A program made the translations under genes and the position numbers. A stretch of DNA of 64,000 bases from an uncultured Kiloniellales bacterium. GTDB taxonomy: Bacteria; Actinomycetota; Acidimicrobiia; Spongiisociales; UBA5794. A model generated the notes under the pieces. The model ran no database searches and was not told where the DNA came from. It was given only the letters and a program-made list of their open reading frames with translations. The first letter of the stretch is position 1, and each line of letters begins with the position of its first letter. This document shows, piece after piece, positions 6,392 to 52,178 of this stretch. The DNA is taken from NCBI GenBank assembly GCA_964195155.1, contig CAXMOP010000115.1:4986-68985 (forward strand). Reading direction: 5' to 3'.

Positions 6392-6449
6392 GGAGCAAAC
6401 GAACTTAGGGCTCGGCGGGCTTCGGACCAAGGACTCAGGCGGTTGCCGG

Positions 6450-12796: not shown

Positions 12797-12878
12797 GTCG
12801 CGAGTCACGAGTCGCGAGTCGCGAGCCCGAATCTTCGGTCGTGGTTTTGCTCGCGACTCGCGACTCGCGTCTGGCGTC
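12795..12878. repeat. Inverted heptamer arrays (GAGTCGC)x4-loop-(GCGACTC)x3 forming a long hairpin
   Basis: Directly visible as gagtcgcgagtcacgagtcgcgagtcgcgag ... ctcgcgactcgcgactcgcg, between cofE and fpg. Confidence 0.9.
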
Positions 12879-12883
12879 TTCTC

Positions 12884-13771
12884 ATGCCTGAGCTGCCTGA
12901 GATCGAGGCGTACCTGTATGCGCTGCGACCGCGGATCGTTGGCCGCCAACTGAAGGAGCTCCGGGTGGCCAGCTTCTCGCTGCTCCGCACCTACGACCCA
13001 CCGGTGTCGGCGGTGGAAGGCAAGGAGGTTGCCGGGGTGCACCGCATCGGGAAGCGCATCGCCATCGACCTCGAGGACGATCTCGCCATCGTGGTTCACC
13101 TGATGATCGCCGGACGGTTGAAGTGGGAGAAGGTGGGCAAGGCGATTCCAAAACGTTACGGGCTCGCCGCCCTCGACTTCGACGACGGAACGCTGCTGCT
13201 GACCGAGGCCGGCACAAAGCGACGGGCGACGATGCACATCGTGCGGGGAGACGAGTCGCTCGATGCGCTCGACCCCGGCGGCGCCGAGCTCGCCGACTTG
13301 GACGTGGCAGGTTTCAAGGAACGTCTACTCGTAGAGCGCCACACCCTCAAGCGAAGCCTCACCGATGCCCGATTCCTTTCTGGAATCGGTGGCGCGTTCG
13401 CCGATGAGATCCTGTGGCAGGCCAAGCTGTCGCCTACCCAGATCAACACCAACCTCGACGACGAGGAGGTCGAGCGTCTGTACCGCGCCAGCGTCGGCGT
13501 CATGGATCGGTGGACCGAGGTGCGCATCGACGAGACCGGCGACGGCTTCCCCGAGAAGGTCACCGCCTTTCATCCCGGCATGGGGGTGCACGGCAAGTTC
13601 GGCGAGGCTTGCCCGGAATGTGGCGCCCCGGTGCAGCGCATCGTGCATGGTCGCCGCGAGACCAACTACTGCCCGGGGTGTCAGACCGGAGGCAGGATCC
13701 TCGCCGACCGATCACTGTCGCGGCTCCTCAAGGACGACTGGCCGAAGACCCTGGACGAGCTAGAGGACTAG
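12884..13771 (+). CDS. Formamidopyrimidine-DNA glycosylase / endonuclease VIII family (Fpg/Nei)
   Basis: The N-terminus MPELPEIE carries the catalytic Pro2 and Glu3. The C-terminal zinc finger is CPECGAPVQR...CPGCQ. Confidence 0.85.
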   Translation: MPELPEIEAYLYALRPRIVGRQLKELRVASFSLLRTYDPPVSAVEGKEVAGVHRIGKRIAIDLEDDLAIVVHLMIAGRLKWEKVGKAIPKRYGLAALDFDDGTLLLTEAGTKRRATMHIVRGDESLDALDPGGAELADLDVAGFKERLLVERHTLKRSLTDARFLSGIGGAFADEILWQAKLSPTQINTNLDDEEVERLYRASVGVMDRWTEVRIDETGDGFPEKVTAFHPGMGVHGKFGEACPECGAPVQRIVHGRRETNYCPGCQTGGRILADRSLSRLLKDDWPKTLDELED

Positions 13772-19598: not shown

Positions 19599-19629
19599 GA
19601 GTCGCGAGTCGCCAGTCGCCAGTTGCGAG
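19599..19629. repeat. Heptamer array GAGTCGC GAGTCGC CAGTCGC CAGTTGC
   Basis: Directly visible between the carboxylase beta and alpha genes. Confidence 0.85.
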
Positions 19630-23125: not shown

Positions 23126-25720
23126 ATGCTTTTTGGCGATGGTACCCAGGGGGGCCATTTCTATTCCCCACCTCCACCGGTCTATTCGCCACCAGCAAGA
23201 ACGTTCATGACCATGGATCCCAATATCCACGAGGCCCATCGCAGGGACCGCCGCCGCAGGCGGCTCCCATCGTTACTGCTGCTCACGATCATTGTGATCG
23301 TCGGGGCGAGCTGGGTCGGGTTGTTCGGGTTCCTCGGCTCCACCTCCGCAATGGGCACCGTCGAGGAAGTGGAGGAGCGGTTTCTCTGCGACATCAGCGG
23401 CGTCGATCTTTCCTTCCCCGATGTTTCCCGCCTCTCCGCGGTCGAGACCAGCGATGGCGTCGAGCTGGGCAAGCTCTCAGAGCGGAACAGCCAGCCGATC
23501 CCGATCGACGAGATCCCCGAGCTCGTGGTCAATGCGTTGCTCTCCGCCGAAGACAAGAGCTTCTACGAGCACGAGGGGGTCGACTTCCTGGCGGTGTTCC
23601 GTGCCGCCACCAGCGGTGGCGAGAGCGGTGCTTCCACGATCACCCAACAGGTCGTGAAGCAGAACTTCCTCAGCTCGGATCGCACCATCGAGCGAAAGAT
23701 CTGTGAGGCGCAGTTGGCGACCGAGCTGGAACGCCTATATACGAAGGACCAGATCCTCGAGTTCTATGCCAACTCGGTCTTTTTCGGCGCCAACGCCTAC
23801 GGGATCACGGCGGCAGCCCAGGAGTACTTCGGGAAGCCGCTCGAGGACCTCGACGCTGCCGAGGCTGCCACGTTGGTCAGCCCGATCAGGAACCCAAGCT
23901 TCTACCACCCACGCCAGAACCCGAGCAACGCCATCGGTGTCCGCAATCGCACCATCGCGAGCATGGAGGAGAACGGGTTCATCACCGCCGAGGAAGCAAC
24001 CGCGGCCAAGAGCCAGTCACTTGGTGTGCTCCCCCACTCCGAACGCGAGGAACTCGCTCCACAGGTCATGATCGCGGTGCGTCGCGCATTGCTTGACGAC
24101 ACCACAAACCGATTTGGTCTCGGCACTACCTATACCGAGCGCAAGCAAGCGGTGTTCGGGTGCCCGGCTGCGGACACCACGTGCGCCGGCGGGGGCGGCC
24201 TGAATATCGAAGTCACCGTCAACTTCGATTGGCAAACCGAAGGAACCCGGATCTTGCGGGCCTGGTATCGGCACGATGCCGGCGGGCCAACCGGCGCCAT
24301 CGCGACCGTGGAGAATGCGACCGGCGCGATTCGCGTGCTGGCGTCTGGCGTCGAGTACGGCACCGACCTCGCCGCCGGGGAGCGGCCATACGACCTTGCT
24401 CTCGAAGGGCGACGCCACGCCGGGTCGGCATTCAAGCCCTACACGCTGGCGGCGGCGCTCGAAAGCGGTGATCTGAACGGGCGGCCGGTCACCTTGAACT
24501 CGTACTGGGACCGAGGCAGGCCGGCCGTGATCGATTGTGGCTTCCCGTGTTCCTCGCGCGGCAATTTTTGGGTGGTCGATGCGGGCCTGAACACCCCTCA
24601 TGAGTTGCGTACCCTCGAGTCCGCAACGGTGTCGTCGCTGAATCCTGTCTACGCCAGGTTGATTGCCGCCATCGGCGCCGAGCCGGTCGTCGACATGGCC
24701 TATCGGCTCGGCATCCGCACGTCGGAGGTGAAGCCGGTGTATGCGGTGACCCTGGGCGCAGCGTCGGTCAGTCCGCTGGAGATGGCATCTGCGTACTCGA
24801 CCTTCGCCAACCAGGGGAACTACCTGGAGCCTTACCTGATCGAACGGATCACCGACTCGTCGGGCAACGTGATCTACCAGCATCGTCCCCAGCCGGAGCG
24901 AGTGCTCTCGCCGCAAATCGCTGCGGCGGTGACGACGACGCTCGAAAAGGTCGTCGCCGGGGGCACCGGTACCCGGGCCAAGATAGACCGGCCGCAGGCG
25001 GGCAAGACCGGAACGGCAACCGACAACACCGACGTGTGGTTCGTCGGATTCATCCCGCAATACTCCACTGCGGTGTGGGTCGGCTATCCCGACGGCGCGG
25101 TTCCGATGAAGAACTTCACGATCTTTAACGACGTCGAAGGCCGCGAGCAGTCGATTCGCCAGGCCTTCGGGGGCACGGTCGCCGCTCCCGCCTGGCGCCA
25201 GTTCATGCTCTACCTCACCGACGGTCTCGAGGTTCTCGACTTTCCCGAGCCGCCGGAGGGCACCAGCCAGTACTACCGCGTGCCGGGGACGCGGGTACCC
25301 AATATCAACCTCGAGAACATGAACCTCGCCAGGATCGAGGATCTGATCTATGCCGCCCACCTGCGCGTCGCGCTCGTCGAGGTCCCATCGCTCGAAGAGG
25401 TGGACACGCTGCTCAGCATGACGCCGGGATCGGGCGCGTCGATGGGTCAGGGCGGGGCCGTGACCATCGAGATCTCGATCGGCATCCCTGAGGAGATCGT
25501 GAGCCCGAACCTGGTCGGTCTGCCGGTAATCGAAGTCGATCCCACCCTCAATGCGTTCCTCGCCGAGTTCGCCGTCCAGCTCAACTGGGTGCGGCAAGAT
25601 GTCGAGACACCCGATCCCGCCCAGTGGGGACGCGTCGTCGCCACCGACCCCCCGCCGGGGGCCCTGGTGAGGCCCGGCGACACGATCATCGTGTCGGTTG
25701 GAGTCCAGCCAAGTAGCTGA
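23126..25720 (+). CDS. Class A penicillin-binding protein (PBP1A: transglycosylase plus transpeptidase plus a C-terminal PASTA-like tail)
   Basis: ATG at 23126 follows GGAGGG. A proline-rich cytoplasmic tail and a TM helix precede the domains. The GT51 motifs [12 protein letters not shown] and RKICE, the SAFKP serine and the KTGT box are all present. Confidence 0.85.
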
Positions 25721-25744
25721 GTCGCGAGTCGCGAGTCGCGAGTC
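25719..25744. repeat. (GAGTCGC)x3.5 heptamer array immediately after the PBP1A stop
   Basis: Directly visible. Confidence 0.9.
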
Positions 25745-25809
25745 ATGAGAACCTCTCACGCATCTCGCGTCTCGCATCTGGTCGGACCCCCAGCTAGGCG
25801 AATTCGTTG

Positions 25810-25894
25810 CCTCCCCCTCAGGGGGAGGTGCCGAGCGCCAGCGAGGCGGAGGGGGTCAAAGCCTTGCCGCGACCACGGTTCGACCCCCTCGCCT
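25810..25894. other. Two very stable GC hairpins: CCTCCCCCT/AGGGGGAGG at 25810-25828, and a 12-bp stem GGCGGAGGGGGTC...GACCCCCTCGCC at 25845-25894
   Basis: Perfect complementarity read directly. They sit in a 396-nt intergenic region. Confidence 0.7.
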
Positions 25895-25970
25895 CCCGAC
25901 TGTCGGGGCTCCCCCCTTTTCGGCTACTCGCTTCGCGCGCTTCCAGTGACCAGGTTTGTCCGTCCGGACT

Positions 25971-26048
25971 CGGTCACCGGTCACCGGTCACCGGTCCCTG
26001 GTCACTGGTCATTGGGATCTGCTCGCGTCACGGGTCTCGGGTCTGGCG
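25971..26048. repeat. Heptamer array (GGTCACC)x3 then GGTCCCT GGTCACT GGTCATT ...
   Basis: Directly visible. Confidence 0.85.
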
Positions 26049-26116
26049 ATGCTATTCTTCGCGCTCTCAGCTCGGCCTACTTGACTATAAGGGCGCCTAG
26101 CTGTACCTATATACCT

Positions 26117-26620
26117 ATGTCAGACTCGGCGGCGTCCGAAGCATCCCTCGCCGACGGTGTACGTCCTCCCACCGCTTCGATCAGGGAATCCGCGCCACCC
26201 TCGGGCGTCGCCGAGCATGACCAGTTCCTACCGAGTGGCCGGCCCATGTCCGCCCCCGCGGCTCCCCGGCCCACCGCTTCGATCCGGCCGCATCTTCGGC
26301 CCGTGGCATGGCGCGGGACCGGCGTGCGGAGCGGATTCTCCACCGACGATCCCTATGTGCGCCGCTTCTGGACGGCGGCCATAGGTCCGGGAGCGGTCGC
26401 GGACCTGATGCGTCTCGCCGTTGCCGCAGAGCGCGGCCGCTCCCTCCCCCGCCCCGAAGCCATCGGTGTCCTCGTCCGGGAGGACCTGGCTCGGTGGGTG
26501 GAGGGACGGCTGTTCGTGCGCACGACGATCCCGCCGCTGTCTGCCGCCCAGGAACGCCGCCTCAGCCCGGGGCTGAAGCGAGAGCACCGCGCCTCCCCGC
26601 AGCCTGCCGCGTCGAGCTAG
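26117..26620 (+). CDS. Hypothetical protein with an Ala/Pro-rich N-terminus and a conserved-looking C-terminal half
   Basis: ATG at 26117, preceded by the AT-rich run gtacctatatacctATG. The coding potential is moderate and no family could be assigned. Confidence 0.4.
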   Translation: MSDSAASEASLADGVRPPTASIRESAPPSGVAEHDQFLPSGRPMSAPAAPRPTASIRPHLRPVAWRGTGVRSGFSTDDPYVRRFWTAAIGPGAVADLMRLAVAAERGRSLPRPEAIGVLVREDLARWVEGRLFVRTTIPPLSAAQERRLSPGLKREHRASPQPAASS

Positions 26621-26630
26621 CGTTGTCGCC

Positions 26631-27743
26631 ATGGACTACCGGCGGCTCATCGAGCAATACCGCTCGGAAGTATCCGAGTTCTCGCCGTCGGAGGCGAAGA
26701 CGGAAGACTTCGCCGTCGTGATCGACGTCCGGGAACCCGTACAGCGTCTCGAAGGATCGATCGCCGATTCGATCGCCATGCCGAGGTCCGTCCTGGAACG
26801 AGAGATCAATGGAACGGTGCCGGACCGCGACGCGTCGATCCTCCTGTACTGCGTCGTCGGTGAGAGCTCGATCCTGGCCGCCCACACACTGCAGGCGCTC
26901 GGCTACCGCAACGTGAGCTCGTTGGCCGGCGGCTTCCGTCGATGGAAGGCCGACGGAAACCCCATCGTCCTCGATGACGCACTCGCCGCCGATGAGCGCA
27001 TCCGATACGACCGCCAGATTCGGCTCGACGAGATCGGCACCTCAGGTCAGCAGCGATTGCTCGCTTCTCGGGCACTGTTGATCGGAGCCGGCGGGCTTGG
27101 CTCCCCCGCCGCGCTCTACCTGGCTGCCGCTGGAGTCGGCTCCATCGGGATTGTCGACTTCGACCGGGTCGACGTGACCAATCTTCACCGGCAGATCCTG
27201 CACGACACGCCATCGATTGGAAGGGCGAAGACCGATTCGGCGGCCGAGCGGCTCGAAGCCCTGAACCCCGACGTCAAGGTCGAGGTCCACGGCATCCAGG
27301 TGTCGGACGAGAACGCGGTCGGCCTCGTGTCGGGCTACGACGTGATCATCGATGCCTCGGACAACTTCCCCACCAGGCTCGCCCTCAACGACGCCTCGAT
27401 TGCCACGGGGGTTCCACTGGTGCACGGATCGGCGCTGCGTTTCGAAGGAACGGTGGCAGTCTTCGACCCACCCAACGGTCCGTGCTATCGATGCCTGTTC
27501 CCCATCCTCCCGCAGGACGCGGCAACCTGCTCGGACGTCGGCGTCCTCGGAGCGTTGACCGGCGTCATCGGCTCGACCCAGGCCGTCGAGGCGATCAAGC
27601 TATTGCTCGGTGTCCGGCCCCTCTCCGGCGAGTTCCTCACCTACAACGCCCTCGACTCCCACTGGGCGAGGTACCGCTTCGAGAAGGACCCGCAGTGCCC
27701 TGCCTGCGGCGCAGAGTCCAGAGTCGAGAGGCCAGAGTCCTGA
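26631..27743 (+). CDS. ThiF/MoeB-type E1-like adenylyltransferase with an N-terminal rhodanese domain (reverse of the MoeZ order)
   Basis: Residues 1-110 form a rhodanese domain with an LYCVVGESS active-site Cys loop. Residues 120-370 form the ThiF domain with the GAGGLGS nucleotide motif and the CYRC...CPAC zinc motifs. Confidence 0.8.
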   Translation: MDYRRLIEQYRSEVSEFSPSEAKTEDFAVVIDVREPVQRLEGSIADSIAMPRSVLEREINGTVPDRDASILLYCVVGESSILAAHTLQALGYRNVSSLAGGFRRWKADGNPIVLDDALAADERIRYDRQIRLDEIGTSGQQRLLASRALLIGAGGLGSPAALYLAAAGVGSIGIVDFDRVDVTNLHRQILHDTPSIGRAKTDSAAERLEALNPDVKVEVHGIQVSDENAVGLVSGYDVIIDASDNFPTRLALNDASIATGVPLVHGSALRFEGTVAVFDPPNGPCYRCLFPILPQDAATCSDVGVLGALTGVIGSTQAVEAIKLLLGVRPLSGEFLTYNALDSHWARYRFEKDPQCPACGAESRVERPES

Positions 27744-27806
27744 GCAAGAGGCCCGAGTCCGACTCTCGACTCATGACTCTCGACTTAAGGCTCTCGACTC
27801 ATGACT
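27714..27806. repeat. Inverted heptamer arrays (GAGTCNN)x about 6 and (GACTCNN)x about 6 forming a long imperfect hairpin between convergent genes
   Basis: Directly visible. Confidence 0.85.
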
Positions 27807-29239
27807 GCTGCTAGCTCCACAAGGGTTCTGACGCCGAAACCGGATCCACCCTTGACCATGTAGTGATCGGTCTTGTCCGCCCGCGCTGGCCCGGCGATGT
27901 CCAGGTGCACCCAGGGCCGGTCCCCGGCGAACTCGGCAAGAAACAGGGCTGCGTTGATGGTGCCGCCCCAGTTGTCGTCTGCGATGTTCTGCAGGTCGGC
28001 GATCGACGAGTCGAGCTTCTGGCGGTATTCATGTTCCAGGGGAAGCTGCCACCACTTCTCTCCGGCGAATCGGCCGGCGGCGAGCACCGACTCTATTGCG
28101 TCCTCGTCGTTGCCGAGCACCGCACCGATGAGCTGGCCGAGGGCAACCTTGGCGGCGCCGGTCAGCGTGGCGATGTCGACCACGAGGTCGACGTCGGCAT
28201 CCGCGGCGATGCCGAGACCATCTGCCAACACCAGCCGGCCCTCGGCATCGGTGTTCAGCACTTCGACGGTCTTGCCGCCGTATGCGGTGAACACGTCGCC
28301 CGGGCGTTGCGCGGCGCCGCCGGTCATGTTCTCGGTGAGAGGAGCCACACCGATCACCCGAATCGGCAGGCCGAGCGCGGCAATGGCCTGCATGGCGCCG
28401 AAGACGGTCGCGGCTCCCGCCATGTCGGTCTTCATCGCCTCCATGCCCTTGGCCGGCTTGATCGACAGTCCGCCCGAGTCAAAGACGATTCCCTTGCCGA
28501 CCAGAGCCAGCGATGTGGAGGCGTCGTCTGGCTCGTAACGGAGCAGCACCATGCGGGGAGGACTGGTGGCACCGGAAGCGACGGCGAGCAGCCCGCCGTA
28601 GCCGCGGGATCGTGCCTCTTGCTCGTCGACGATCTCGACTTCGACTCCGGCGATCCCTGCGGCGCGCTCGGCGAGTACCGCCGGTGGCTTGTCGCCCGCC
28701 GGCTCATTGACCAGATCCCGTGTGAAGTTGACGCCCGCGGCGATCTTGGATGCCCGTTCGATCGCAGCACCGGCGCCGTCTTCGGCCTCCAGGAGCACGA
28801 GCCGCTCGGTCCTACGCTCCTTCGGTTCTGATCGGTACTCGTCGAATGAATAGGATCCGAGCAGAAAGCCAAGGGCCACCGCCTCGGCGGCCCCTTCGAC
28901 GTCGACCAGATGCAATGTGGTGGCGACCTTTGCCAAGGGACGGGCGGCTCGGCCGAGGGTGCCGGCTGCCCTTCGGATCGCCTCGGCATCGACCTCGTCG
29001 CCGAGACCGAGAAACAGCACCTCGGTGAAGCCGGTCTCCCCCCCGGGGACCGCGACCTGCTGGCCGGTCTTGCCGCTGAACTCACGCGCTGCGAGGTACT
29101 CGTCGAGCCAGTCGCCGAGCCGCTCGGAGACTGCGGCTCCCCCAGGCCCGTAGGTAGAATCGGCGAATACCGGCACGGCGAGCAAGTCGCCGGCCGCTTC
29201 GGCGAGGGATCCTCCTGTTTCGATCTCAGTCATCGGCAT
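27785..29239 (-). CDS. pepA: Leucyl aminopeptidase (M17, PepA)
   Basis: NTDAEGRL and the M17 metal-ligand region VGKGIVFDSGG are present. Confidence 0.85.
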   Translation of the reverse strand: MPMTEIETGGSLAEAAGDLLAVPVFADSTYGPGGAAVSERLGDWLDEYLAAREFSGKTGQQVAVPGGETGFTEVLFLGLGDEVDAEAIRRAAGTLGRAARPLAKVATTLHLVDVEGAAEAVALGFLLGSYSFDEYRSEPKERRTERLVLLEAEDGAGAAIERASKIAAGVNFTRDLVNEPAGDKPPAVLAERAAGIAGVEVEIVDEQEARSRGYGGLLAVASGATSPPRMVLLRYEPDDASTSLALVGKGIVFDSGGLSIKPAKGMEAMKTDMAGAATVFGAMQAIAALGLPIRVIGVAPLTENMTGGAAQRPGDVFTAYGGKTVEVLNTDAEGRLVLADGLGIAADADVDLVVDIATLTGAAKVALGQLIGAVLGNDEDAIESVLAAGRFAGEKWWQLPLEHEYRQKLDSSIADLQNIADDNWGGTINAALFLAEFAGDRPWVHLDIAGPARADKTDHYMVKGGSGFGVRTLVELAAVMSREP

Positions 29240-32427: not shown

Positions 32428-32542
32428 GTCAACCTCCTCCTCGGCGACGCGCAAGGGTAGGCGGCGGGCGCGGTCGGGCCGCCCGGGCATCGTGCGCGTA
32501 TGGTTTGTGGAACATGAGCCGCGAGCAATCCGAGGTGTTGTG

Positions 32543-33208
32543 ATGACGGCAAAGGGTGGCAACGGTCGGCTTCCCCTCTCCTACCTGACCCTGCGACGGA
32601 CTTTGGGAATCCTGGGCATGGCGCTTCCGGTGATTTTGGTGATCGGCGGCCTCATCTTCACCTCCAACAGCGAGATCGAGAACACCATCAGCGACTATTA
32701 CGACACCATCATGGTGGGCGTCTTTGTCGGCGTGCTGTTTGCCATTGCCACGTTCATGTTCTCCTACCTCGGCTACGAGATGCCGAACAGGGGACGATTC
32801 GAGGCTACCGACAACATCGCCGGCAACCTGGCGGCCCTCTTCGCCGTCCTGGTGGCGCTGTTCCCGACCACCCATTCCGTGCAGTGGGTGCGAGGCGTGC
32901 ACCTGGCATCGGCGTTGCTGTTCTTCATGACCCTGGCGTACTTCTCGATCCACTTGTTCACCAAGACCACGCCGGGCGAGACCGCGCAGGGGAGAAAGGC
33001 CGATCGGAACCGGATCTACCGAGTCTGCGGCTGGGCCATCATCCTGTTCATCGCCCTGATCGCCGTCTACTTCCTGTTCTTCCAGGACACGGGCATCGCC
33101 GATCTCAAGCCCGTGCTCGTGCTCGAGTCACTTGCGCTGTGGGCATTTGGCATCTCCTGGCTGGTCAAGGGCGATACGTTGCTCCAGGACTCACCGCCCG
33201 CCCGGTGA
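32543..33208 (+). CDS. Hypothetical membrane protein (5-6 TM helices); first gene of the low-GC island
   Basis: ATG at 32543 with a GAGGTG Shine-Dalgarno sequence. GC content is clearly lower than in the flanking DNA. Confidence 0.55.
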
Positions 33209-33393
33209 GCGCTTCCGGTCGAGCCTCGAGCCCGAGGCGATCGCCGAACGGCGGATGGCGAGTTGAGGCCCGAGGGCAGCGCGGTATTGCCGGTTCTCGG
33301 ACGCCGCGACGTGGGTTGGTGAGCCGGCGCGTGCGTCGTTATGTGCGGTCTGCGCAGACGGTGGAAACCGACGATCTTGCCAGGGGTCAGGGA

Positions 33394-33415
33394 GCGCATA
33401 TTGCCGGATATGCGC
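33394..33415. promoter_or_regulatory. Island palindromic motif copy a: GCGCATATTGCCGGATATGCGC
   Basis: An 8-bp perfect inverted repeat around a GCCGG core. It lies upstream of the MBL hydrolase gene. A related copy is at 33454-33473. Confidence 0.6.
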
Positions 33416-33540
33416 TAGCTGATCTTGACGAACCGCTACGGGGAGCGCGAACAGAATGCCGGTTATGTGCGGGTGTCTGGGGGCCTTCTCCGGGCCCCGT
33501 CAGAACGAACTAGGGTGCGTCGACCCGAAGGAGGCCTTCT

Positions 33541-34677
33541 TTGTCGAACTTTGTCCTAGCGCATCTGGGTGGTACTACAGCGCTTACTACTGAGCCGGTC
33601 GTCGGGTCATCAGATATTGACCCGAGCGTGGCATTTCTGCCCGGGACCGAGGAGCTCGCCGAAGGTGAGATCCGAGTGTCAATCTTGGGTTCCGGGTTGC
33701 CGTGGGTGACCAAGTCGCAGGCATCCGGATCGGTTCTCATGGAGGTGGGCAATCCCGAAAAGGATGTGCTCGTCTTCGATATGGGAACAGGATCGCTGGC
33801 GAACTTCAGCGGTCTTCAAGTTCCTGTCACAAGCCTGAAGAACGTGTTCTTGAGCCATCTACATGCAGACCACATCTCCGACTACGTCACATTCATGGGC
33901 AGCTACGTCAAGGCTGGACGTCTAGACCCTGTCGAGGTGTGGGGTGGAGCGTCCGACGATCCCACATTGGGCCTTGCGACTTTCGTGGACCACATTCAGC
34001 GAGCCCTCGCGTGGGACCAGGCCTCAATCGAGGGATATGTACCTACTACCGGAGGACATGCCACCGCTCACGAAGTTCCATACGACAGGACTGAGGTGAT
34101 CTACGAGCGCAATGGCGTAACCATCACTTCGTTCCCAGTCATCCACGTCCTCAACGGTGCGGTGGGTTTCCGCGTCGATTACGGCGGGCAGTCCGTCGTG
34201 TTCTCTGGCGACACCCTCCCAACGATGACGCTTGTTGAGGCCTCTCAGAATTGTGATCTCCTGATCCACGAGGCAGCCCTTCCCGCCGAGCTGTTTGCCG
34301 AGTTGTACAGCTTCCCGATCGAGCAGGCGCGGATGGTCATCAATGAAGGCCACACCCCCGCCAACGCTGCTGGAATGGTGTTCGACATGGTGACGCCGCG
34401 AATGGCAGCCATGTGGCACACGGCCGTTGTAGACAAGTACGTCGATCCTTTCTTTGAGTCTCTCCGCACGACGTACTCCGGGCCGGCAACGCTGTGCCAG
34501 GACCTAACCGTGTTCAACGTCACGGCCGACGCCGTCACCGCCCGCCAAGCGACCATCGATTGGACCCAACAGGCGGTCGTAGGCGAATCCGATACCGCCC
34601 GGTCCTACGCAGAGCGGCGTCCCAGCCCGACATGGTTCGCCGACGCATATATCGACTGGCAGTCAAAACTCGGCTAA
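33541..34677 (+). CDS. MBL-fold metallo-hydrolase
   Basis: The HLHADHISD motif (HxHxDH) is present. TTG start at 33541, 7 nt after AAGGAGG. Confidence 0.75.
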   Translation: MSNFVLAHLGGTTALTTEPVVGSSDIDPSVAFLPGTEELAEGEIRVSILGSGLPWVTKSQASGSVLMEVGNPEKDVLVFDMGTGSLANFSGLQVPVTSLKNVFLSHLHADHISDYVTFMGSYVKAGRLDPVEVWGGASDDPTLGLATFVDHIQRALAWDQASIEGYVPTTGGHATAHEVPYDRTEVIYERNGVTITSFPVIHVLNGAVGFRVDYGGQSVVFSGDTLPTMTLVEASQNCDLLIHEAALPAELFAELYSFPIEQARMVINEGHTPANAAGMVFDMVTPRMAAMWHTAVVDKYVDPFFESLRTTYSGPATLCQDLTVFNVTADAVTARQATIDWTQQAVVGESDTARSYAERRPSPTWFADAYIDWQSKLG

Positions 34678-34680
34678 TCA

Positions 34681-34752
34681 GCCGCACATAACGGCACATA
34701 GTGGGCGGTCGCCTCCAGCTAGCGCATATCGGCACATATGCGCATATGTGTC
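34681..34752. promoter_or_regulatory. Island palindromic motif copies c1 and c2 (CCGCACATAACGGCACATAGTGGGCGG and GCGCATATCGGCACATATGCGCATATGTG)
   Basis: Directly visible in the convergent spacer after the MBL gene. Confidence 0.6.
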
Positions 34753-34855
34753 GATTGGGCGGGGGATTGGGTGCGTGTCTATGAAGCGCGAAGCGGCGCT
34801 GTGGACGTTTGCCGAGTCCGACGATTGAGTCGGGTCTTCTGTGGGTGAGTGGCGG

Positions 34856-35170
34856 TCAGCCCACCTCGACGTATTCCGAAATTGTCTTCATGAACTCGTC
34901 GGGGTCATCTGGGGTGACCGTGGCCCGTAGACGGCCGCCAGCATCTATCGCAATCCCCGTGGTCTTGTGTCGGCGTGCAGTGTCCCAGTTATACCAGTTC
35001 GACCATCCGCCCGGACCGAGTCCTATGACCCTCCACCGCCCGCCGAATCCCATCTCAAACACCTCGACTGATCGAATCTCGCCGTACGGAACCCGCTTCT
35101 CGCCCAATAGCCCGTAGCGAGCGATCGTGATACCCGTGTCATCGGCTCGCACCGTGTTGTCCTCATACAT
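34856..35170 (-). CDS. Bacterial PH-domain (bPH_2-like) small protein
   Basis: 104 aa. ATG at 35170. Confidence 0.5.
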   Translation of the reverse strand: MYEDNTVRADDTGITIARYGLLGEKRVPYGEIRSVEVFEMGFGGRWRVIGLGPGGWSNWYNWDTARRHKTTGIAIDAGGRLRATVTPDDPDEFMKTISEYVEVG

Positions 35171-35305
35171 CAGCCGCAGAGTATTGACACACTCGTCGTA
35201 TCAACACCGCCGCTGTCGCCGGTCGAATGAGCCACATCTCAATCGGGCGCGGCGGACTCACGAGGCCCAGACGCCCTCCGTCAGACAGTTCGGATTGAGA
35301 AGGCC

Positions 35306-35375
35306 CCCCCATAACCGGCAATATGGGCGGTTTCGCCCGGCGGGTCGGGTAGCGCATATGTGCCGATATGGGCGG
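35306..35375. promoter_or_regulatory. Island palindromic motif copies d1 (CCCCCATAACCGGCAATATGGGCGG) and d2 (GCGCATATGTGCCGATATGGGCGG)
   Basis: Directly visible. d2 ends at the ridA stop codon. Confidence 0.6.
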
Positions 35376-35834
35376 CTATTGGATCTCGACGATCGCCTCG
35401 ATCTCTACCGGTATGTTCATTGGAAGCGATCCAAGTCCGACCGCTGAACGTGCATGCCGTCCAGCCTCGCCGAATACGTCCGCCAGTAGATCAGAGCACC
35501 CGTTGATGACAGCCGGGTGATCAGTGAAATCGGTCGTGCAATTCACCATCCCCAGCACCTTGACTACCCTTACGACCTCGTCAAGCGAACCGAGATTCTT
35601 TCGAAGCGTCGCAAGCAAGCCAAGGCATGTGACTCGTGCCGCCTCGCTAGCTTCATCGGTATCGAGGTCCTCTCCAACCTTGCCGGTCATCCACGACCCG
35701 TCGGCGCGCATCGGGCCATGACCGGACGTGTAGGCGAGGTTCCCCGTTCGCACAAACGTGACATAGGACGCAATCGGATCGGGAGGTGAGGGCAACACCA
35801 AACCGAGTTCCTTGAGTCGAGCCTCCGCCGACAT
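35376..35834 (-). CDS. RidA/YjgF-family reactive-intermediate deaminase
   Basis: 152 aa with typical RidA fold motifs. ATG at 35834. Confidence 0.8.
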   Translation of the reverse strand: MSAEARLKELGLVLPSPPDPIASYVTFVRTGNLAYTSGHGPMRADGSWMTGKVGEDLDTDEASEAARVTCLGLLATLRKNLGSLDEVVRVVKVLGMVNCTTDFTDHPAVINGCSDLLADVFGEAGRHARSAVGLGSLPMNIPVEIEAIVEIQ

Positions 35835-35920
35835 CAGACGCTCCTGCCTCTACGAATCCCCCGAGGGTACAGGCCCACGTCTCCCGTCAACATTCTCGGC
35901 CGCACCAAGCCACTCAGAGA

Positions 35921-35944
35921 GCGCATATGTGCCGATATGGGCGG
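35921..35944. promoter_or_regulatory. Island palindromic motif copy e: GCGCATATGTGCCGATATGGGCGG
   Basis: Identical to d2, and located upstream of ridA. Confidence 0.6.
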
Positions 35945-35954
35945 GTGTTTGGTG

Positions 35955-37124
35955 TCAGCCGCAGGTGGCCTCGGAGCTGCTACTGACGGTATCGATCCAG
36001 TGGACGGATTGTCCGGTGGCGATGTCGCCTGTGGAGATCGTCCCTGATGCGGTGTATGTCGAGGGGTCGACGTTGAAGGTGTGGCGGTAGTCCGTTTCGT
36101 TGCCTGTTGTAGTGATGATCCCGGAGAACGTGTCGGTGGGGGCGCGGGATGGGATTTGGCGGTCATCGAGTCGGATGCTGGCGTGTAGGGGGCCGCCCCA
36201 GTCTCCCCACGTCAGGATCACTTGACACTCGCCCGAGCTTGGATCCCTGGACAGTTGGAGTGTTAGTTCAGCTTCGAGGGACGGCTTGTCGTTCAAACTG
36301 GCCTGTACGTCGATGAAGTTGCCTGCCAGCGGTACCAGTCGCGGGTTCCCGTAGAGGAAATCGACGTCGGCAACACCTGGGGTATTGGAGAACCGGAGGA
36401 ACATGGTGCGAGCGAATGGTCTGAAGATGCCCACGGTGTCAGGACCAGGCAGGTCGTCCTTCTGTGCCCAGTCACCGGCGATGATCCTGTCACCAGGATC
36501 TCCGTAGTAGAAGGTGCTATCGGCGATCCCCTGGGTATTCGAGTTCCGGAGGAACACCTGTCCGGTTGATTCGCGGTGGAGACCGACGGTGTCGATGTCG
36601 TCGTCGTCGAAGTCGCCTACGAACGGCTTGTCGAGAGGATTCCCGTAGTAGAACGAGTAGCTGGCCGCGCCCAGACCCTGTTCCCCACTGCCGAGACTGT
36701 CGAATATGAAGACTTGACCCTGCGACGGCCGGTACAGCGACACCGTATCGCACCCGTCCCCGTCGAAATCTCCTGTGATCGGAACGTCACCACGGCTGCC
36801 GAGGTAGAACCTGACATCGCCCTCTCCGATCGCGATGTGATTCCGCAGGTACACGTATCCATCCGTCGGTCGGAACATGCCTGGCGTATCCCAGCCATCG
36901 CAGTCCCAATCACCGACGATCGGGATATCTCCGGGTACGCCGAAGAAGAATCTATAGCTCGAAATCGTCCCGGATTGCTCGTGCTGCTGACGCAGGTACC
37001 ACAGGCCCGATGTGGTATCAACCACACCGACGGTGTCCTCGGGCGTCTCGGCCAAAACCGGAGCCGGTAAGGCGAGCCAACCGAGCACGACAATCAACAC
37101 AAGAGCCGTCACTGTCACCCTCAC
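35955..37124 (-). CDS. Secreted FG-GAP / beta-propeller repeat protein
   Basis: The signal peptide is VRVTVTALVLIVVLGWLALPAPVLA. At least five repeats of F(Y)YG.PGD.P..GD[WF]D.DG.DT.G.FRP follow. The start is GTG at 37124, or TTG at 37160. Confidence 0.7.
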   Translation of the reverse strand: MRVTVTALVLIVVLGWLALPAPVLAETPEDTVGVVDTTSGLWYLRQQHEQSGTISSYRFFFGVPGDIPIVGDWDCDGWDTPGMFRPTDGYVYLRNHIAIGEGDVRFYLGSRGDVPITGDFDGDGCDTVSLYRPSQGQVFIFDSLGSGEQGLGAASYSFYYGNPLDKPFVGDFDDDDIDTVGLHRESTGQVFLRNSNTQGIADSTFYYGDPGDRIIAGDWAQKDDLPGPDTVGIFRPFARTMFLRFSNTPGVADVDFLYGNPRLVPLAGNFIDVQASLNDKPSLEAELTLQLSRDPSSGECQVILTWGDWGGPLHASIRLDDRQIPSRAPTDTFSGIITTTGNETDYRHTFNVDPSTYTASGTISTGDIATGQSVHWIDTVSSSSEATCG

Positions 37125-37388
37125 CGACACCCCCGGACCCTCCACAATTTCGATCCTCAACGATCACGGATCATACGACTCAGACTATGAGAGGAAACGG
37201 ACCATGGTTCCCCATGACGTCCGGCTCAGCTAGCTCCTAGACGCCGAAGGAAGAGCGATCGCCGAATGGAATGGTGCTGCGGACGACCAGACGCTCGACT
37301 CTCTGCTCGAACAGTCCCTCGGGTGATCAACCCGGCCGAACGCCACCAAACCAATGACCTTCGGCGGCACGTCAAACCTCCGACCACA

Positions 37389-37414
37389 CCCGCCCATAAC
37401 CGGCAATATGCGCC
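37389..37414. promoter_or_regulatory. Island palindromic motif copy f: CCGCCCATAACCGGCAATATGCGCC (reverse complement of copy a type)
   Basis: Directly visible in the divergent spacer between the FG-GAP gene and the HNH gene. Confidence 0.6.
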
Positions 37415-37585
37415 CCCTACGTCCCGGTCTCCAGAGGCAGGACCGGGTACAGCACGAACACCGATCACCCGGTCTGAGCGACATCGCCGACATCCACGAG
37501 TGCTCTGGAACGGCACTTCGGAGTGCGGTCAGTTTCCTTGCATTTCTTCTGGAATCTGTCACCCGCACCGTGTAGGATCGAACAT

Positions 37586-38821
37586 ATGTTCGATAGAGAA
37601 TTCACCTCTGTCCCCGATGGGCTCGACGACATGGAACCAAGCGTGGAGTTGGCAACCGCGCTCAATGACATCGACGTCGATCTGGTGTCGCCGCATGACC
37701 GGATCATCGTCATCCGCGCCTACGCCCGAATGGAGTCCTACTACCAGGCCCGCAAGTATCGCGCCATGGCCTCGGTCGCCGACGCCTTGGAAGAAGACGA
37801 CATGCAGCATGGCCTCGACACCGCTGCCGCCGAGATCCAAGCCGCCCTGTGTCTGACCCGCCGCGCTACCGAAACCGAACTCGGGTTCGCGTTGGATCTG
37901 TGGCATCGCCTTCCGCAGGTCTGGTCTGCGTTGGCGGCGGGGATGATCGACTACCGGAGGGCCCGGGTCATCTCCCTCGGGACGGTCCACCTCGACACCG
38001 GTGCCGCATGGGAAGTCGTCGAACGCATCTTGGAGGACGCCGGCCGGCTCACCTCCGGCGAGCTGCGGAGCCGTCTGCACCGGATGGCGATCGAAGCCGA
38101 CCCGGAGGACGCGCGGCTCCGCTACGAGGACGCCGTCAAGGAGCGGCGAGTGGTTCTCGAACCCGCCGATGACGGGACCGCCAACCTGCTCGGCCTCCAG
38201 CTGGCTCCCCATCGCGCCGCAGCTGCTTCCCGTCATGTGAACCATCTCGCCCGATCGCTGAGGACGAGGGACGAGACCCGCACCATGGATCAACTCCGCG
38301 CCGACGTCCTCATCGACCTGCTCTTGGGCAAGGCACACAGCGGCAAGAAGGCGGGAGCGGTGAATTTGCGGGTCGATCTGGAAACCCTCTCAGGCCTCGC
38401 CGAAGACGCAGGTGAGTTGAACGGCTACGGCCCGGTGATCGCCGACATCGCCCGCCAGATCGCCGCTGAAGCCGAAGATGCCGAATGGCGCTACGCCATC
38501 ACCGACCCGCACACCGGCCAATTGATCACCGACGGGACCACCCGCCGTCGCCCCACCGCCGCGTTGCGCCGCACCGTGGAGGCAAGAGATCAGACCTGTG
38601 TGTTCCCCGGCTGTCGCGTGCCCGCGGTCGACTGCGACTTCGACCACAGCACCCGATGGGCCGACGGCGGCGAAACCACAGAAGACAACGGCGCCCCCCT
38701 CTGTCGCCACAACCACATCACCAAGGACCAACTCGGTTGGAGCTACCGGCGGCTCCGTGACGGCCGCTACCGATGGCGCAGCCGACTCGGCCACACCTAT
38801 TACAGCGCCAGATCCCCATAG
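37586..38821 (+). CDS. DUF222 (REP13E12-family) HNH endonuclease
   Basis: The N-terminal DUF222 region is followed by a C-terminal HNH motif, CVFPGCRVPAVDCDFDHSTRWADGGETTEDNGAPLCRHNH. Confidence 0.8.
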   Translation: MFDREFTSVPDGLDDMEPSVELATALNDIDVDLVSPHDRIIVIRAYARMESYYQARKYRAMASVADALEEDDMQHGLDTAAAEIQAALCLTRRATETELGFALDLWHRLPQVWSALAAGMIDYRRARVISLGTVHLDTGAAWEVVERILEDAGRLTSGELRSRLHRMAIEADPEDARLRYEDAVKERRVVLEPADDGTANLLGLQLAPHRAAAASRHVNHLARSLRTRDETRTMDQLRADVLIDLLLGKAHSGKKAGAVNLRVDLETLSGLAEDAGELNGYGPVIADIARQIAAEAEDAEWRYAITDPHTGQLITDGTTRRRPTAALRRTVEARDQTCVFPGCRVPAVDCDFDHSTRWADGGETTEDNGAPLCRHNHITKDQLGWSYRRLRDGRYRWRSRLGHTYYSARSP

Positions 38822-38838: not shown

Positions 38839-39912
38839 CTACCCGACCGTGTACAGCTCGCGGTCCGACCGGTTCAACCGCTCCACGCCGTCGTCGGTGA
38901 CCGTCACGATGTCTTCGATCCGCATCCCCCAGTGACCGGGTTGGTAGATGCCCGGCTCGATGGAAAAAGCCATGCCGGAGACCAGCTCAGTGGTGTCTCC
39001 TTTGACGAGATAGGGTCGCTCGTGGGTGTCGAGGCCGATACCGTGCCCGGTGCGGTGGATGAAGAGCTCGCCGTATCCGCCGTCCTCGATCACGGTCCGA
39101 GCTGCGACATCAATGGACCCGGCGGTTACCCCCGGCTTCACCGCATCCACGGCCGATCGTTGCGCGGCGCCGAGCACCTCGTACGCCTCGGCGAACCCCC
39201 CCGGGGGGTCTCCCACCACGAACATGCGAGTGGTGTCGGATCCGTATCCATCGAGCCAGCCGCCGAAGTCAACGACAACGGCGTCGCCACGCTCGATCAT
39301 CCGGCCGGTCGGCTCGTGGTGGGGCGATGCGCCGTTTGGCCCGGAGGCGACGATGGCAAAGCCGCTCCTCTGATGGCCCGAGTCGAGCGTCATCTCGTCG
39401 ATCAGCCGCGACAGCTCGCGTTCGCTGCGCCCTGAGAACCTGGTCGCCCCCAGCCGGGCAACCACCGCGTCGGTGGCTGCACCCGCGGCGCGGAGAGACG
39501 CGATCTCGCCCTCGTCCTTCACCATGCGCAGCTCGGACATCAGCGGTTCGGCCGGTTCGAACCGCGCACCCGGCAGCCGGGTCTGCATGCCGATCAAGAA
39601 GGTTGCCCAGGTCTGGTTGCCAACGGCGACGGTGGAAGCGTTGCCGATCAGGCCAGCGAGGATCGCGATTGGATCCTCGGTCTCCGACCAGGCCCGCTTC
39701 TCCACACCGGACTCGACGCGCACCTCCTCGAGCACCGGTACCAACAGGACTGGATCACCCTCGGCGGGCAGCACCAGTGCGGTGATGCGCTCGTTCTCCA
39801 TTGCCTGGTACCCGATCAGATACGGCAGATCGGATCCAACGGTGACGACGAGGGCATCGACGCCGCGGCGAGCCATCTCCAGTCGCGCCGAAGCGATCCG
39901 GCGCTCGTTCAC
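38839..39912 (-). CDS. M24-family Xaa-Pro aminopeptidase/dipeptidase
   Basis: A pita-bread fold with HRTGHGIGLDTHE metal ligands. GTG start at 39912. Confidence 0.8.
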   Translation of the reverse strand: MNERRIASARLEMARRGVDALVVTVGSDLPYLIGYQAMENERITALVLPAEGDPVLLVPVLEEVRVESGVEKRAWSETEDPIAILAGLIGNASTVAVGNQTWATFLIGMQTRLPGARFEPAEPLMSELRMVKDEGEIASLRAAGAATDAVVARLGATRFSGRSERELSRLIDEMTLDSGHQRSGFAIVASGPNGASPHHEPTGRMIERGDAVVVDFGGWLDGYGSDTTRMFVVGDPPGGFAEAYEVLGAAQRSAVDAVKPGVTAGSIDVAARTVIEDGGYGELFIHRTGHGIGLDTHERPYLVKGDTTELVSGMAFSIEPGIYQPGHWGMRIEDIVTVTDDGVERLNRSDRELYTVG

Positions 39913-41555
39913 GTGGCCTGGGCGAGCGAGTCGCGGGCGTGATAGGAGGAACGGACCAGCGGACCGGACTCAACATGGCTGATCCCGAGAGACTCGCCGT
40001 GGCTGCGATATCTGGCGAACTCATCGGGATGGACGTAGCGATGGATCGGGCGGTGCCGCGGCGTTGGCCGGAGGTACTGGCCGATCGTGACCAGATCGAC
40101 GCCGACCGCCCGGAGGTCGGCGAGCGTCCCGAGCACCTCTTCCTCGGTCTCCCCCATCCCGACGATCAGGCCCGACTTCACCGTGCCCGCCGGGTTGAGC
40201 CACTTGGCTCTCGCCAGCAGGGTCAACGACCGTGCGTAGTTGGCGGCGGTGCGGATCTCCCGTTGCAGACGCAGCACGGTCTCGGTGTTGTGATTGAGGA
40301 CCTCGGGCTTCTCGCCGACCATGGACTCGAGAGCGTCCCGATCGCCCTTGAAGTCGGGGATCAGCACCTCGACGTCGCAGCCGGGAACGAGGTCGCGGAT
40401 CCTTCGGACCGTCTCAGCAAAGATCCCGGCGCCACCGTCGGGAAGGTCGTCGCGGTTGACCGAGGTCAATACCGCGTGACGCAATCCCATCTGCTGTATG
40501 GCCTCGGCGGCCCGCAGCGGCTCATCGACGTCGACCTCGCCGGGCTTGCCCGTGTTGACGTCGCAGAAGGAACAGGCGCGGGTGCAGGTATCACCGAGCA
40601 GCATCAAGGTCGCAGTGCCGGCCTCCCAGCACTCATAGATGTTGGGGCAACCCGCTTCCTCGCACACGGTGTTGAGCTCGAGTCCCCGCATCAGCTGCTT
40701 CAGCTCCCCGTATCCGTCAGAGCCAAGGTTTGCCCTGACCTTCATCCATTCGGGACGAGCCGGCTCGCCCGGGAGGAGGCCACCGATCAGGATCGGGGTC
40801 TCCCCACGGCCGGCCGCGGAGAACGCACCGGATGCGACCATCGCATCGACGTCGTACCGGCCGGATCGCTCGCTTGGCCGGAAGGCGCCGAGCTGTATCT
40901 CCGGCTCCACGGATCCAAAGACTGCCGCTGCGTGCGGAACCAGGGCATCGATGACGGACTCCATCGGGAGATGCTCACCGATCAGCTGGGCGATCGAGGT
41001 CACCGGCCGGTCGGCGATCCCGCATGGGACGATGTTGGAGAAGTATGCAAGGTCCGGGTCCACGTTGAGGGCAAAGCCGTGGGTTGAAACTCCCCGGGCA
41101 ACCCGAACCCCGATGGCGGCCACCTTGCCCCGCCCGGTCCACACGCCGGTCTGGCCGGCCTCGGCCCAGGCTTCGATGCCGAGATCGGCGAGGGCGGCGA
41201 TGAGCATCGCCTCGAGGCGGCGAACGTGGCCGACCATGTCCCAGCCATTTGCCAGCTTCGGGATAGCAACGATCGGGTAGCCGACGAGCTGGCCGGGGCC
41301 GTGGTACGTGATGTCGCCGCCGCGATCGACGTGGTGCAACCTGGCACCAATCGCGTCGAGGTCGGCCTCGGCGATGGTGAGATTGGATCCGTCACCGTTT
41401 CGGCCGACCGTGTAGGTATGCGGGTGCTCCAGCAGCAGCAGGTAGTCGTCCGCGGACCGACCCTCGGTTCGTCCCTCCCAGAACGCACGCTGCAGGTCCC
41501 ATGCCTCGTCGTACTCGACGCGGCCGAGCCACCGCACACGGAGGCGGTGGCTCAT
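39909..41555 (-). CDS. In-frame fusion of octanoyltransferase LipB (N-terminal, about 238 aa) and lipoyl synthase LipA (C-terminal, about 310 aa)
   Basis: ATG at 41555 forms an ATGA overlap with the E2 gene stop. The LipB catalytic region includes TYHGPGQLVGYPI and the catalytic C of ...VPCGI. LipA then follows with RPEWMKV, the [4Fe-4S] triad CEEAGCPNIYEC and the radical-SAM triad CTRACSFC. There is no stop codon between the two halves. Confidence 0.8.
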   Translation of the reverse strand: MSHRLRVRWLGRVEYDEAWDLQRAFWEGRTEGRSADDYLLLLEHPHTYTVGRNGDGSNLTIAEADLDAIGARLHHVDRGGDITYHGPGQLVGYPIVAIPKLANGWDMVGHVRRLEAMLIAALADLGIEAWAEAGQTGVWTGRGKVAAIGVRVARGVSTHGFALNVDPDLAYFSNIVPCGIADRPVTSIAQLIGEHLPMESVIDALVPHAAAVFGSVEPEIQLGAFRPSERSGRYDVDAMVASGAFSAAGRGETPILIGGLLPGEPARPEWMKVRANLGSDGYGELKQLMRGLELNTVCEEAGCPNIYECWEAGTATLMLLGDTCTRACSFCDVNTGKPGEVDVDEPLRAAEAIQQMGLRHAVLTSVNRDDLPDGGAGIFAETVRRIRDLVPGCDVEVLIPDFKGDRDALESMVGEKPEVLNHNTETVLRLQREIRTAANYARSLTLLARAKWLNPAGTVKSGLIVGMGETEEEVLGTLADLRAVGVDLVTIGQYLRPTPRHRPIHRYVHPDEFARYRSHGESLGISHVESGPLVRSSYHARDSLAQAT

Positions 41556-52167: not shown

Positions 52168-52178
52168 ACGCTCGCAAC

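Follow-up and report, generated by a model that had tools for sequence, protein, structure and literature searches.

Tandem arrays of heptanucleotides lie at the gene boundaries of the window analysed here, a stretch of 64,000 nucleotides (nt) on contig CAXMOP010000115.1 from an uncultured, marine-type member of the Acidimicrobiia (Actinomycetota). The window is a housekeeping segment of the chromosome with 65% GC. Its gene map, which combines a codon-usage map, Pfam annotation and the genes called on public contigs, comprises about 60 genes and leaves about 10% of the sequence non-coding. Among the species representatives of GTDB, the best match of the leucyl aminopeptidase gene pepA (79%) is found in a metagenome-assembled genome named ‘uncultured Acidimicrobiaceae’, and the F420 genes and NucS of the window fit a placement in the Acidimicrobiia. 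The arrays obey a strict polarity with respect to the genes and they arise, change length and turn over between species in the manner of a microsatellite.

One of the array pairs, at 27714, lies between the 3′ ends of two convergent genes which encode a ThiF-family adenylyltransferase with a rhodanese domain and the aminopeptidase PepA. This site is not purely intergenic. The first 30 nt of the left arm (27712-27760) code for the tail of the ThiF/rhodanese protein (...CPACG-AESRVERPES*); the stop codon TGA of this gene (27741-27743) falls within the arm, and the Pfam match of its product ends at residue 358 of 370. The right arm (27761-27806) reads as GACTCTC/GACTCAT heptamers and belongs to the inverted-repeat pairs I1-I6, while its last 22 nt code for the tail of PepA (...VMSREP*). 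The non-coding part of the site amounts to just 41 nt.

Autocorrelation at period 7 picked out 10 regions of the window, and none was found for periods 5, 6, 8, 9, 10 or 11. A regular-expression census, which required at least three in-register AG[T/A]C cores, returned 10 arrays where 0.05 are expected by chance, and all 10 lie outside gene bodies. TRF (Tandem Repeats Finder) reports head-to-tail 7-nt units in 3-7 copies at 10 loci. The arrays were found again in assemblies made independently from several samples, which rules out an artefact of assembly. The unit GAGTCGC is shared by the loci at 12795, 19599, 25719, 52139 and 63419 and by five loci in the flanking parts of the contig; the units AGTCGTC, CACTGGT and CGGTCAC coexist with it in the window. 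Convergent inverted pairs occur at six loci of the window and at six sister loci. Every defining feature of the heptamer class known as short tandemly repeated repetitive (STRR) sequences or long simple sequence repeats (LSSR) that we tested is present in the arrays. A search of the whole window against Rfam at the gathering cutoff gave no hits. The original prediction had regarded the repeat as the primary element, and this view is supported; its list of arrays had missed those at 25719-25779, 25971-26044 and 47286-47319.

Tandem repeats of other periods are also present. Those at 57704-57785 and 51849-51957 have units of 15 nt (x5.3) and of 24/27 nt (x4.2 / x1.9), all multiples of three; they are unrelated to the heptamers and lie inside or overlap coding ends (an ABC ATPase gene and the gene of a low-complexity LTD-domain protein). 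Just past the right end of the window, between NucS and SufB, an 8-nt repeat, GCCGAGTA (x3.5), stands beside GGTGACC and GAGTCGC heptamers (L136:11700-11790; numbers such as L007, L008, L068 and L082 label the contigs or loci of relatives which were compared with the window). It is the sole period-8 array seen.

Polarity and folding of the arrays

The orientation of an array follows the gene boundary to which it is anchored. Without exception (15/15), the plus strand shows GAGTC in arrays at the left edge of a spacer and GACTC in arrays at the right edge. In the census, the five arrays with AGTC on the plus strand are all nearest to the left-hand gene and the five with AGTC on the minus strand are all nearest to the right-hand gene; the remaining five, located in about 20 kb of the same genome that flank the window, also follow this rule. 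Read 5′ to 3′ away from the anchoring boundary, be it a start or a stop, the sequence is always GAGTCGC. All 12 paired loci, in the window and in the sister genomes, read 5′-AGTC...GACT-3′ and never the reverse. Moreover, arrays located 3′ of a gene begin on its stop codon. This is seen as TGAGTC at 12794, 25718 and 63418 and on the minus strand at 63511, as TAAGTC at 47284 and on the minus strand at 27787, and as TAG-GAGTC at 19596, and the same start on a stop codon is found in L008, L082 and L009.

Facing arrays are complementary because each of them reads GAGTC 5′ to 3′ away from its own gene boundary. The earlier view of hairpin formation as a secondary arrangement is therefore half right: the orientation is not free, and the complementarity follows from the built-in polarity. 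The hairpins are best read as a by-product of this polarity.

Opposed arms are present at the three sites where they had been predicted, with a left arm of GAGTCNN units facing a right arm of NNGACTC units at 27712-27806, 12795-12879 and 63419-63512. Both strands were folded as RNA and scored against dinucleotide shuffles. The minimum free energy structures of the three sites contain 31-36 pairs, for which the earlier estimate of imperfect stems of 20-35 bp was a fair one, and their free energies range from -41 to -59 kcal/mol. The stem at 12785-12890 is the strongest (z -5.6 on the plus and -7.1 on the minus strand) and includes a perfect, uninterrupted helix of 19-21 bp. At 27705-27815 the z scores are -3.2 (plus) and -3.7 (minus) with a longest uninterrupted helix of 10 bp; at 63410-63520 they are only -1.45 (plus) and -2.7 (minus), and this helix measures 7 bp. 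The proposed comparison with shuffled controls thus gives significant folds at 12795 and 27714 and a weaker one at 63419. The z score for 25719-25779 is -2.1. Real stems are found at three to four loci of the window, and the folds at 78-216 (z -0.16), 6446, 19599 and 52139 are no better than shuffles. The stems of the sister genomes have z scores of -3.5 to -5.8, with stop and start codons at the predicted base of the stem.

Arrays without a partner had been described at four places, two in divergent regions and two between co-directional genes. Those at 52139 (divergent) and 19599 (with the unit GAGTCGC) are indeed single; 79-216 holds two opposed arrays, and the array at 6446-6516 carries a different unit.

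Gain, loss and change of arrays between species

The junction of pepA and the ThiF gene illustrates how arrays are gained. In L007 (79% pepA identity) and L068 (81%), the two genes overlap tail to tail at CTAG and there is no array. The pepA gene of L068 ends in ...QMSR* (= ATGAGTCGCTAG), so that its single GAGTCGC is native coding sequence. The junction of L009 (71%) forms an ordinary short hairpin. In L082 (92%) and L008 (77%), AAGTCNC arrays are read through as longer C-terminal tails of the proteins, as are the GAGTCNN arrays of the window. Arrays just downstream of pepA were also observed in three Geomonas species (Desulfobacterota), each with a different heptamer (L041:11387-11435, L047:11499-11542 and L051:11445-11532).

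Between cofE (12095-12796, plus strand) and fpg (12884-13771, plus strand), the distance from TGA to ATG is 6-9 nt in L133 (Fpg 91%), L134 (86%) and L135 (85%), and none of these three contigs shows a heptamer array anywhere in 5-20 kb; L010-L016 likewise count as relatives free of arrays. In the window, this spacer measures 87 nt and forms the hairpin. The transketolase gene (tkt) overlaps the next gene at GTGA in the window and is 3 nt apart from it in L007; a hairpin of about 85 nt sits exactly between the tkt stop and the ATG of the next gene in L068 and L008. Synteny with L008 over 17.3-32.5 kb of the window allowed further comparisons. The 19599 array exists only in the window and is absent at the orthologous junction of L008. 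At the convergent junction of biotin carboxylase and methylmalonyl-CoA mutase (21446/21493 in the window), L008 alone has an array of 15 units faced by an opposed arm, and the window has a single palindromic unit. The array at the 3′ end of the penicillin-binding protein (PBP) gene is common to four lineages (the window, L082, L008 and L009), with a different unit in each.

The unit itself has shifted in concert between lineages. The base which precedes AG[T/A]C is G in 34 units of the window, C in 9, A in 2 and T in 1; in L008, L068 and L082, the array-bearing sister genomes with AAGTC-type units, it is A in 42, G in 9 and C in 2. The unit AAGTCGC occurs at all loci of these three genomes. 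Differences between strains consist of whole units: the right arm 63473-63512 is shorter by one 14-nt double unit in L136, and the array at 6446-6516 is longer by one 14-nt double unit in L138, in both cases with flanks that are 100% identical. We also considered a hypermutable contingency locus. Since six contigs from different samples, all with an identical Fpg protein, share the copy number of the 12795 array, the arrays are not hypermutable; variation exists and is modest.

About 300 nt of L132 (4377-4676; the cofE 3′ end, the hairpin and the fpg 5′ end) are 99-100% identical to 12677-12976 of the window, and identity falls to 60-79% in the left flank and 82-93% in the right one. Either the hairpin was transferred between species by recombination over this short tract, or the assembly is chimeric here. 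Furthermore, a 6.3-kb segment (32540-38821) which includes a DUF222 (HNH-associated) gene at 37586-38821 separates the transketolase gene from that of an M24 peptidase. The two genes are adjacent in L012; in L008 the peptidase is missing and an array occupies the junction. Arrays may mark points of rearrangement.

Table 1. Arrays of the window, listed after the two genes that converge at 27714
Feature	Position	Strand	Description
ThiF-family adenylyltransferase, N-terminal rhodanese domain	26631-27743	+	Pfam PF00899 (4e-77), PF00581
M17 leucyl aminopeptidase (pepA)	27785-29239	-	Pfam PF00883 (2e-114); stop TAA (27785-27787) within right arm
Left arm, 27714 hairpin	27712-27760	+	degenerate (C/G)AGAGTC heptamers; TRF period 7, 7.1 copies
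Right arm, 27714 hairpin	27761-27806	-	14-nt double unit (GAGTCAT GAGTCGA, - strand) x3.3; TRF period 14
Left arm, 12795 hairpin	12795-12825	+	GAGTCGC x4.4; begins on cofE stop (TGAGTC)
Right arm, 12795 hairpin	12850-12879	-	GCGACTC x2-3, then GCGTCTG GCGTCTT; ends 5 nt before fpg ATG 12884
Left arm, 63419 hairpin	63419-63449	+	GAGTCGC x4.4; begins on stop of sigma-70 gene (TGAGTC)
Right arm, 63419 hairpin	63473-63512	-	14-nt double unit (GAGTCGA GAGTCTT, - strand) x2.9; begins on NucS stop (TGAGTC, - strand)
Array	79-115	+	AGTCGTC x5.3; 17 nt from start of - strand phosphoglucomutase/phosphomannomutase gene
Degenerate opposed array	153-216	-	GACTGTG/GACTCAG (+ strand); upstream of GT2 glycosyltransferase gene, ATG 238
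Variant-unit array	6446-6516	-	ACCAGTG/ACGAGTG (- strand; CACTGGT/CACTCGT on +); overlaps stop of gene 6508-6891 (-)
Single array	19599-19629	+	GAGTCGC x4.4; starts 1 nt past carboxyltransferase stop, then short GCGAGC/GCTCGT stem
Array pair	25719-25779	+	GAGTCGC x3.7 on stop of PBP gene, then degenerate opposed arm (CGCATCT/CGCGTCT)
Arrays	25971-26044	+	CGGTCAC x5.9 and CTCGGGT x3.3, within long spacer 25721-26302
Small pair	47286-47319		TAAGTCCAGGGTCC, then GACTCTC x2.9, between co-directional genes
Single array	52139-52164	-	GACTCGC x3.7 (+ strand); ends 15 nt before HAD hydrolase ATG, divergent spacer

Some features in the vicinity of the arrays deserve mention. The long 3′ spacer of the PBP gene contains, between its two array blocks, a window-specific insert of about 180 nt (25786-25965) with a perfect 15-bp inverted repeat (GAGGCGGAGGGGGTC / GACCCCCTCGCCTCC) and a hairpin, CCTCCCCCTCAGGGGGAGG. 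The orthologous spacers in L082 and L008 lack this insert, which may be another small element. Downstream of it, at 26075-26300, a promoter-like TTGACT...TACCTATAT is followed by about 150 nt, and this stretch is conserved in L082 and L008. It gave no Rfam match and is possibly a leader or a short upstream open reading frame (ORF); the gene which follows (26303-26620) is small and lacks a Pfam match. At 52167-52181, the start codon of the HAD hydrolase gene is preceded by TACGCT (-12 to -7 from the ATG), which suggests a leaderless mRNA; the GACTCGC array then covers about -15 to -40, where a -35 region would lie. Elsewhere in the window, a 542-residue ORF (39909-41537, minus strand) joins a LipB-like octanoyltransferase domain (LplA-B_cat) to a radical-SAM domain of lipoyl synthase and is an apparent LipB-LipA fusion.

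Origin of the arrays and alternative explanations

We consider it moderately probable that the arrays are a lineage-specific heptanucleotide microsatellite with the unit RAGTCNN (GAGTCGC in this genome), of the class to which the cyanobacterial STRR sequences and the GGGAATC repeats of Xanthomonas belong. They were born in spacers of 0-9 nt or where gene ends overlapped tail to tail, and they change by whole units and turn over between species, which is the behaviour of a microsatellite. Outside non-coding DNA, only the final few codons of a gene tolerate them. A new example, from a high-GC actinobacterial lineage (Acidimicrobiia), is thereby added to a class of repeats which is known but lacks a mechanistic explanation. 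Array growth would proceed by replication slippage together with template switching within the hairpin. At paired arrays, the transcript of either strand, or the DNA, can fold into a stem of 31-36 pairs with the ends of the genes at its base. Such a stem would mainly make the insertion harmless: the extra RNA would be looped out and stop and start, or stop and stop, would be kept adjacent. At most, it might serve as a U-less 3′ stem-loop which protects transcripts or partly ends them.

Several observations weigh against this reading. On plain slippage from seeds that arose by chance, the presence of one unit at most loci of a genome has no explanation, and neither the concerted shift of the unit between close lineages nor an orientation that follows the anchoring boundary in all 15 arrays is predicted. 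Some of the junctions that gained a hairpin, for instance that of tkt and the next gene, have no recognisable seed in relatives. The array at 12795 is identical in the six contigs from different samples. In addition, the stem may have a real role in 3′-end formation.

This last point touches on the original proposal, in which the paired arrays are bidirectional terminators. In its broader form, they would be functional terminators or 3′-end stabilisers, bidirectional between convergent genes and selected for stem formation, which we regard as unlikely. Stable stems do follow stop codons directly at 27714, 63419, 25719 and 12795, and repeat-built 3′ hairpins are known elsewhere, for example the repetitive extragenic palindromic (REP) sequences and paired uptake sequences. 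Terminators of the canonical type, a hairpin followed by a U-run, show no enrichment in this genome, so that another 3′-end signal may be needed. However, of the features of an intrinsic terminator the GC-rich stem-loop is present but the U-tract immediately 3′ of the stem is missing after every stem and on either strand, and the A6 which follows 63512 is on the wrong side for both transcripts. A terminator scan of the window picked up none of the stems, and its hits elsewhere were at chance level. The position relative to transcription units varies from site to site. All three named sites had been placed between convergent genes; this holds for 27714 and 63419, at the ends of transcription units, but cofE and fpg at 12795 are co-directional. 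There only 5 nt separate the strongest stem from the fpg start, and hairpins of the sister genomes lie between formerly overlapping, coupled genes; an efficient terminator in such a place would silence the downstream gene. Only 2 of the approximately 11 convergent junctions in the window carry arrays. Selection for the stem is also at odds with arms that differ at the NN positions (at 63419, GAGTCGC in one arm against GAGTCGA/GAGTCTT in the other, with a plus-strand z of only -1.45) and that vary independently, as shown by the uncompensated loss of 14 nt in one arm of L136. Single arrays and promoter-side arrays exist as well. A dedicated bidirectional intrinsic terminator is consequently unsupported, given the lack of a T-run, the proximity of the 12795 stem to the fpg ATG, the few convergent junctions with arrays and the independent change of the arms.

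Could the unit be fixed by a protein? The arrays might be bound by a lineage-specific factor that covers 7 nt and whose specificity sets the unit genome-wide, such as a single-strand RNA binder of the cold-shock/S1 type or a DNA-binding protein. This would account for the dominance of one unit, for its concerted shift (GAGTC against AAGTC) between lineages which are 8-20% apart in protein sequence and for the de novo appearance of arrays with the lineage’s unit at seedless junctions. Cold-shock and S1 proteins have been suggested for the TAACTGA heptamers (PMC4679880), and for the heptamers of Nostoc a binding partner of unidentified nature has been put forward (bioRxiv 10.1101/2022.06.06.494920). 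Nevertheless, different units coexist in the window (AGTCGTC, CACTGGT and CGGTCAC), the units of paired arrays would be buried in the stem, the flanking genes have no common function and no candidate gene was identified. We find such a factor distinctly unlikely.

The strict polarity also brings to mind a polar, sequence-specific DNA synthesis in place of local slippage, of which the paired arrays would be the scars or products: repeats could be added to the 3′ ends at a break before end joining, copied by folding back, or carried by a small mobile hairpin element. Strict polarity (15/15, and likewise in L008, L068 and L082) is the exact product expected, since both 3′ ends of a break would be extended. 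The lineage-typical unit at seedless junctions and the tract of 300 nt with the 12795 hairpin, 99-100% identical between the window and L132 within flanks of 60-93%, point in the same direction. Against this stand strain differences that are simple unit indels, the absence of target-site duplications and of conserved loop or terminal sequences, and the possibility that the L132 mosaic is an assembly chimera. Neither a reverse transcriptase, a primase-polymerase, Ku/LigD, a transposase nor a REP-associated tyrosine transposase (RAYT) was seen in the 64-kb window, where all annotated genes are housekeeping genes. Such synthesis is, in our opinion, highly improbable. Miniature inverted-repeat transposable elements (MITEs) and REP doublets (REPINs) were considered separately and rejected. 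A comparison of loops and junctions at 19 loci showed that the loops are not conserved, that terminal repeats are limited to the heptamers and that the target is not duplicated; the fixed length of MITE and REP elements is not shared by arrays whose length varies by the number of units and whose loops are unrelated.

Taken as one proposition, an origin of the arrays either in a polar, sequence-specific process (3′-end unit addition, telomere-like healing or fold-back copying followed by joining) or in a factor-dictated heptamer is very unlikely. If true, it would explain the uniform polarity, the hairpins between stop and start built from the lineage’s own unit and the concerted change from AAGTC to GAGTC. 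If it were also general, it would offer a mechanism for the long-unexplained excess of heptamers in cyanobacteria, Xanthomonas and other bacteria.

Lastly, the speculation that the arrays concentrate GANTC sites for a methyltransferase or restriction system of the CcrM/HinfI type is hardly credible: arrays make up about 1% of the sequence and do contain 38 of the 170 GAGTC/GACTC sites of the window, but sister lineages build the same structures from AAGTCGC, which contains no GANTC, GANTC is also missing from AGTCGTC, CACTGGT and CGGTCAC, units of other arrays in the window, and from the common variant GAGACGC, counts outside the arrays are at the expectation of a maximal-order Markov model (GAGTC, 132 observed and 130.5 expected; GAATC, 112 and 107.8), and the suggested search for an enzyme found no methyltransferase or restriction gene among the approximately 60 genes of the 64-kb window, a part of the genome only. 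A depletion of GAGTC as a sign of restriction was considered as well. The apparent deficit (170 sites where a dinucleotide shuffle predicts 222) is due to the dinucleotide null model and is gone under the maximal-order Markov model (170 against 158.7).

The region offers unusually clean material for comparison: relatives with and without arrays at the same junctions, unit indels at the strain level, a concerted change of the unit and a strict polarity. Such regularities constrain any mechanism proposed for heptamer repeats. The arrays also provide housekeeping proteins with lineage-specific C-terminal tails, place stable stems between formerly overlapping genes and are hotspots able to confuse gene calling and metagenome assembly.

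Comparison with known heptamer repeats

Intergenic heptamer repeats of the STRR type have been known since 1990 and their origin and function are not understood. According to the summary of Mrazek (2007) given in PMC4679880, heptamers are the most abundant class of long simple sequence repeats in many bacteria, and slippage of the DNA polymerase on a 7-nt contact was proposed (Mrazek 2007, as summarised in PMC4679880 and PMC4692102). The genome of Geobacter metallireducens likewise carries dispersed multicopy blocks in which four or five heptamers follow one another in tandem; they differ from the present arrays in their fixed copy number and often intragenic location and are not described as opposed pairs (PMC2700814).

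Marine Beggiatoaceae carry TAACTGA heptamers at about 170 loci, where 2-6 tandem copies closely precede start codons (MacGregor 2015, PMC4679880); these repeats were proposed to be translational regulators (PMC4679880). Like our arrays, they are a genome-specific heptamer with a strong positioning relative to gene boundaries, and some overlap the ends of ORFs. They differ in that nearly all are direct, forward repeats ending 1 nt before start codons, with one inverted pair.

In enterobacteria, REP sequences and bacterial interspersed mosaic elements (BIMEs) are genome-specific hairpins in 3′ untranslated regions and intercistronic spacers which can stabilise the upstream mRNA. REPs are fixed imperfect palindromes of 20-40 nt which are spread by the RAYT transposase. 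In contrast, the tandem heptamers described here change by the number of units, and no RAYT was seen in the window.

The STRR units of cyanobacteria are CCCCAGT, TTGGTCA and CAACAGT. They thus differ from the units of the window, and their hosts are heterocystous cyanobacteria with low-GC genomes. We know of no description of a polarity rule relative to gene boundaries for STRR sequences. The first of these units, the classical STRR1, also forms the Geomonas array of L051, as (CCCCAGT)x10. STRR repeats of 7 bp form hairpins between hupS and hupL, for which a role in transcript stability or translational coupling was suggested (PMC2670836). The resemblance to our arrays lies in several families of 7-bp units per genome, the intergenic location and the hairpins between co-transcribed genes.

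In Xanthomonas, the GGGAATC repeat forms 186 arrays, mostly of four units, of which about 90% are intergenic (Rehm et al. 2015, PMC4692102). The mean distance of these arrays from the upstream ORF is 28 nt, and each genome has 70-75 convergent inverted pairs (PMC4692102). The arrays of the window belong to another phylum; GAGTCGC has no G-runs, unlike GGGAATC, which is rich in them and forms G-quadruplexes, and in place of a mean distance of 28 nt, they abut or overlap the stop codons (0-1 nt) and extend the ORFs. Both repeats have in common the 7-nt unit, the usual number of about four copies, the intergenic location near the 3′ end of the upstream ORF and the convergent pairs with the potential to form stem-loops. 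In both cases, sister species differ in the length and the sequence of the arrays at the same junctions.

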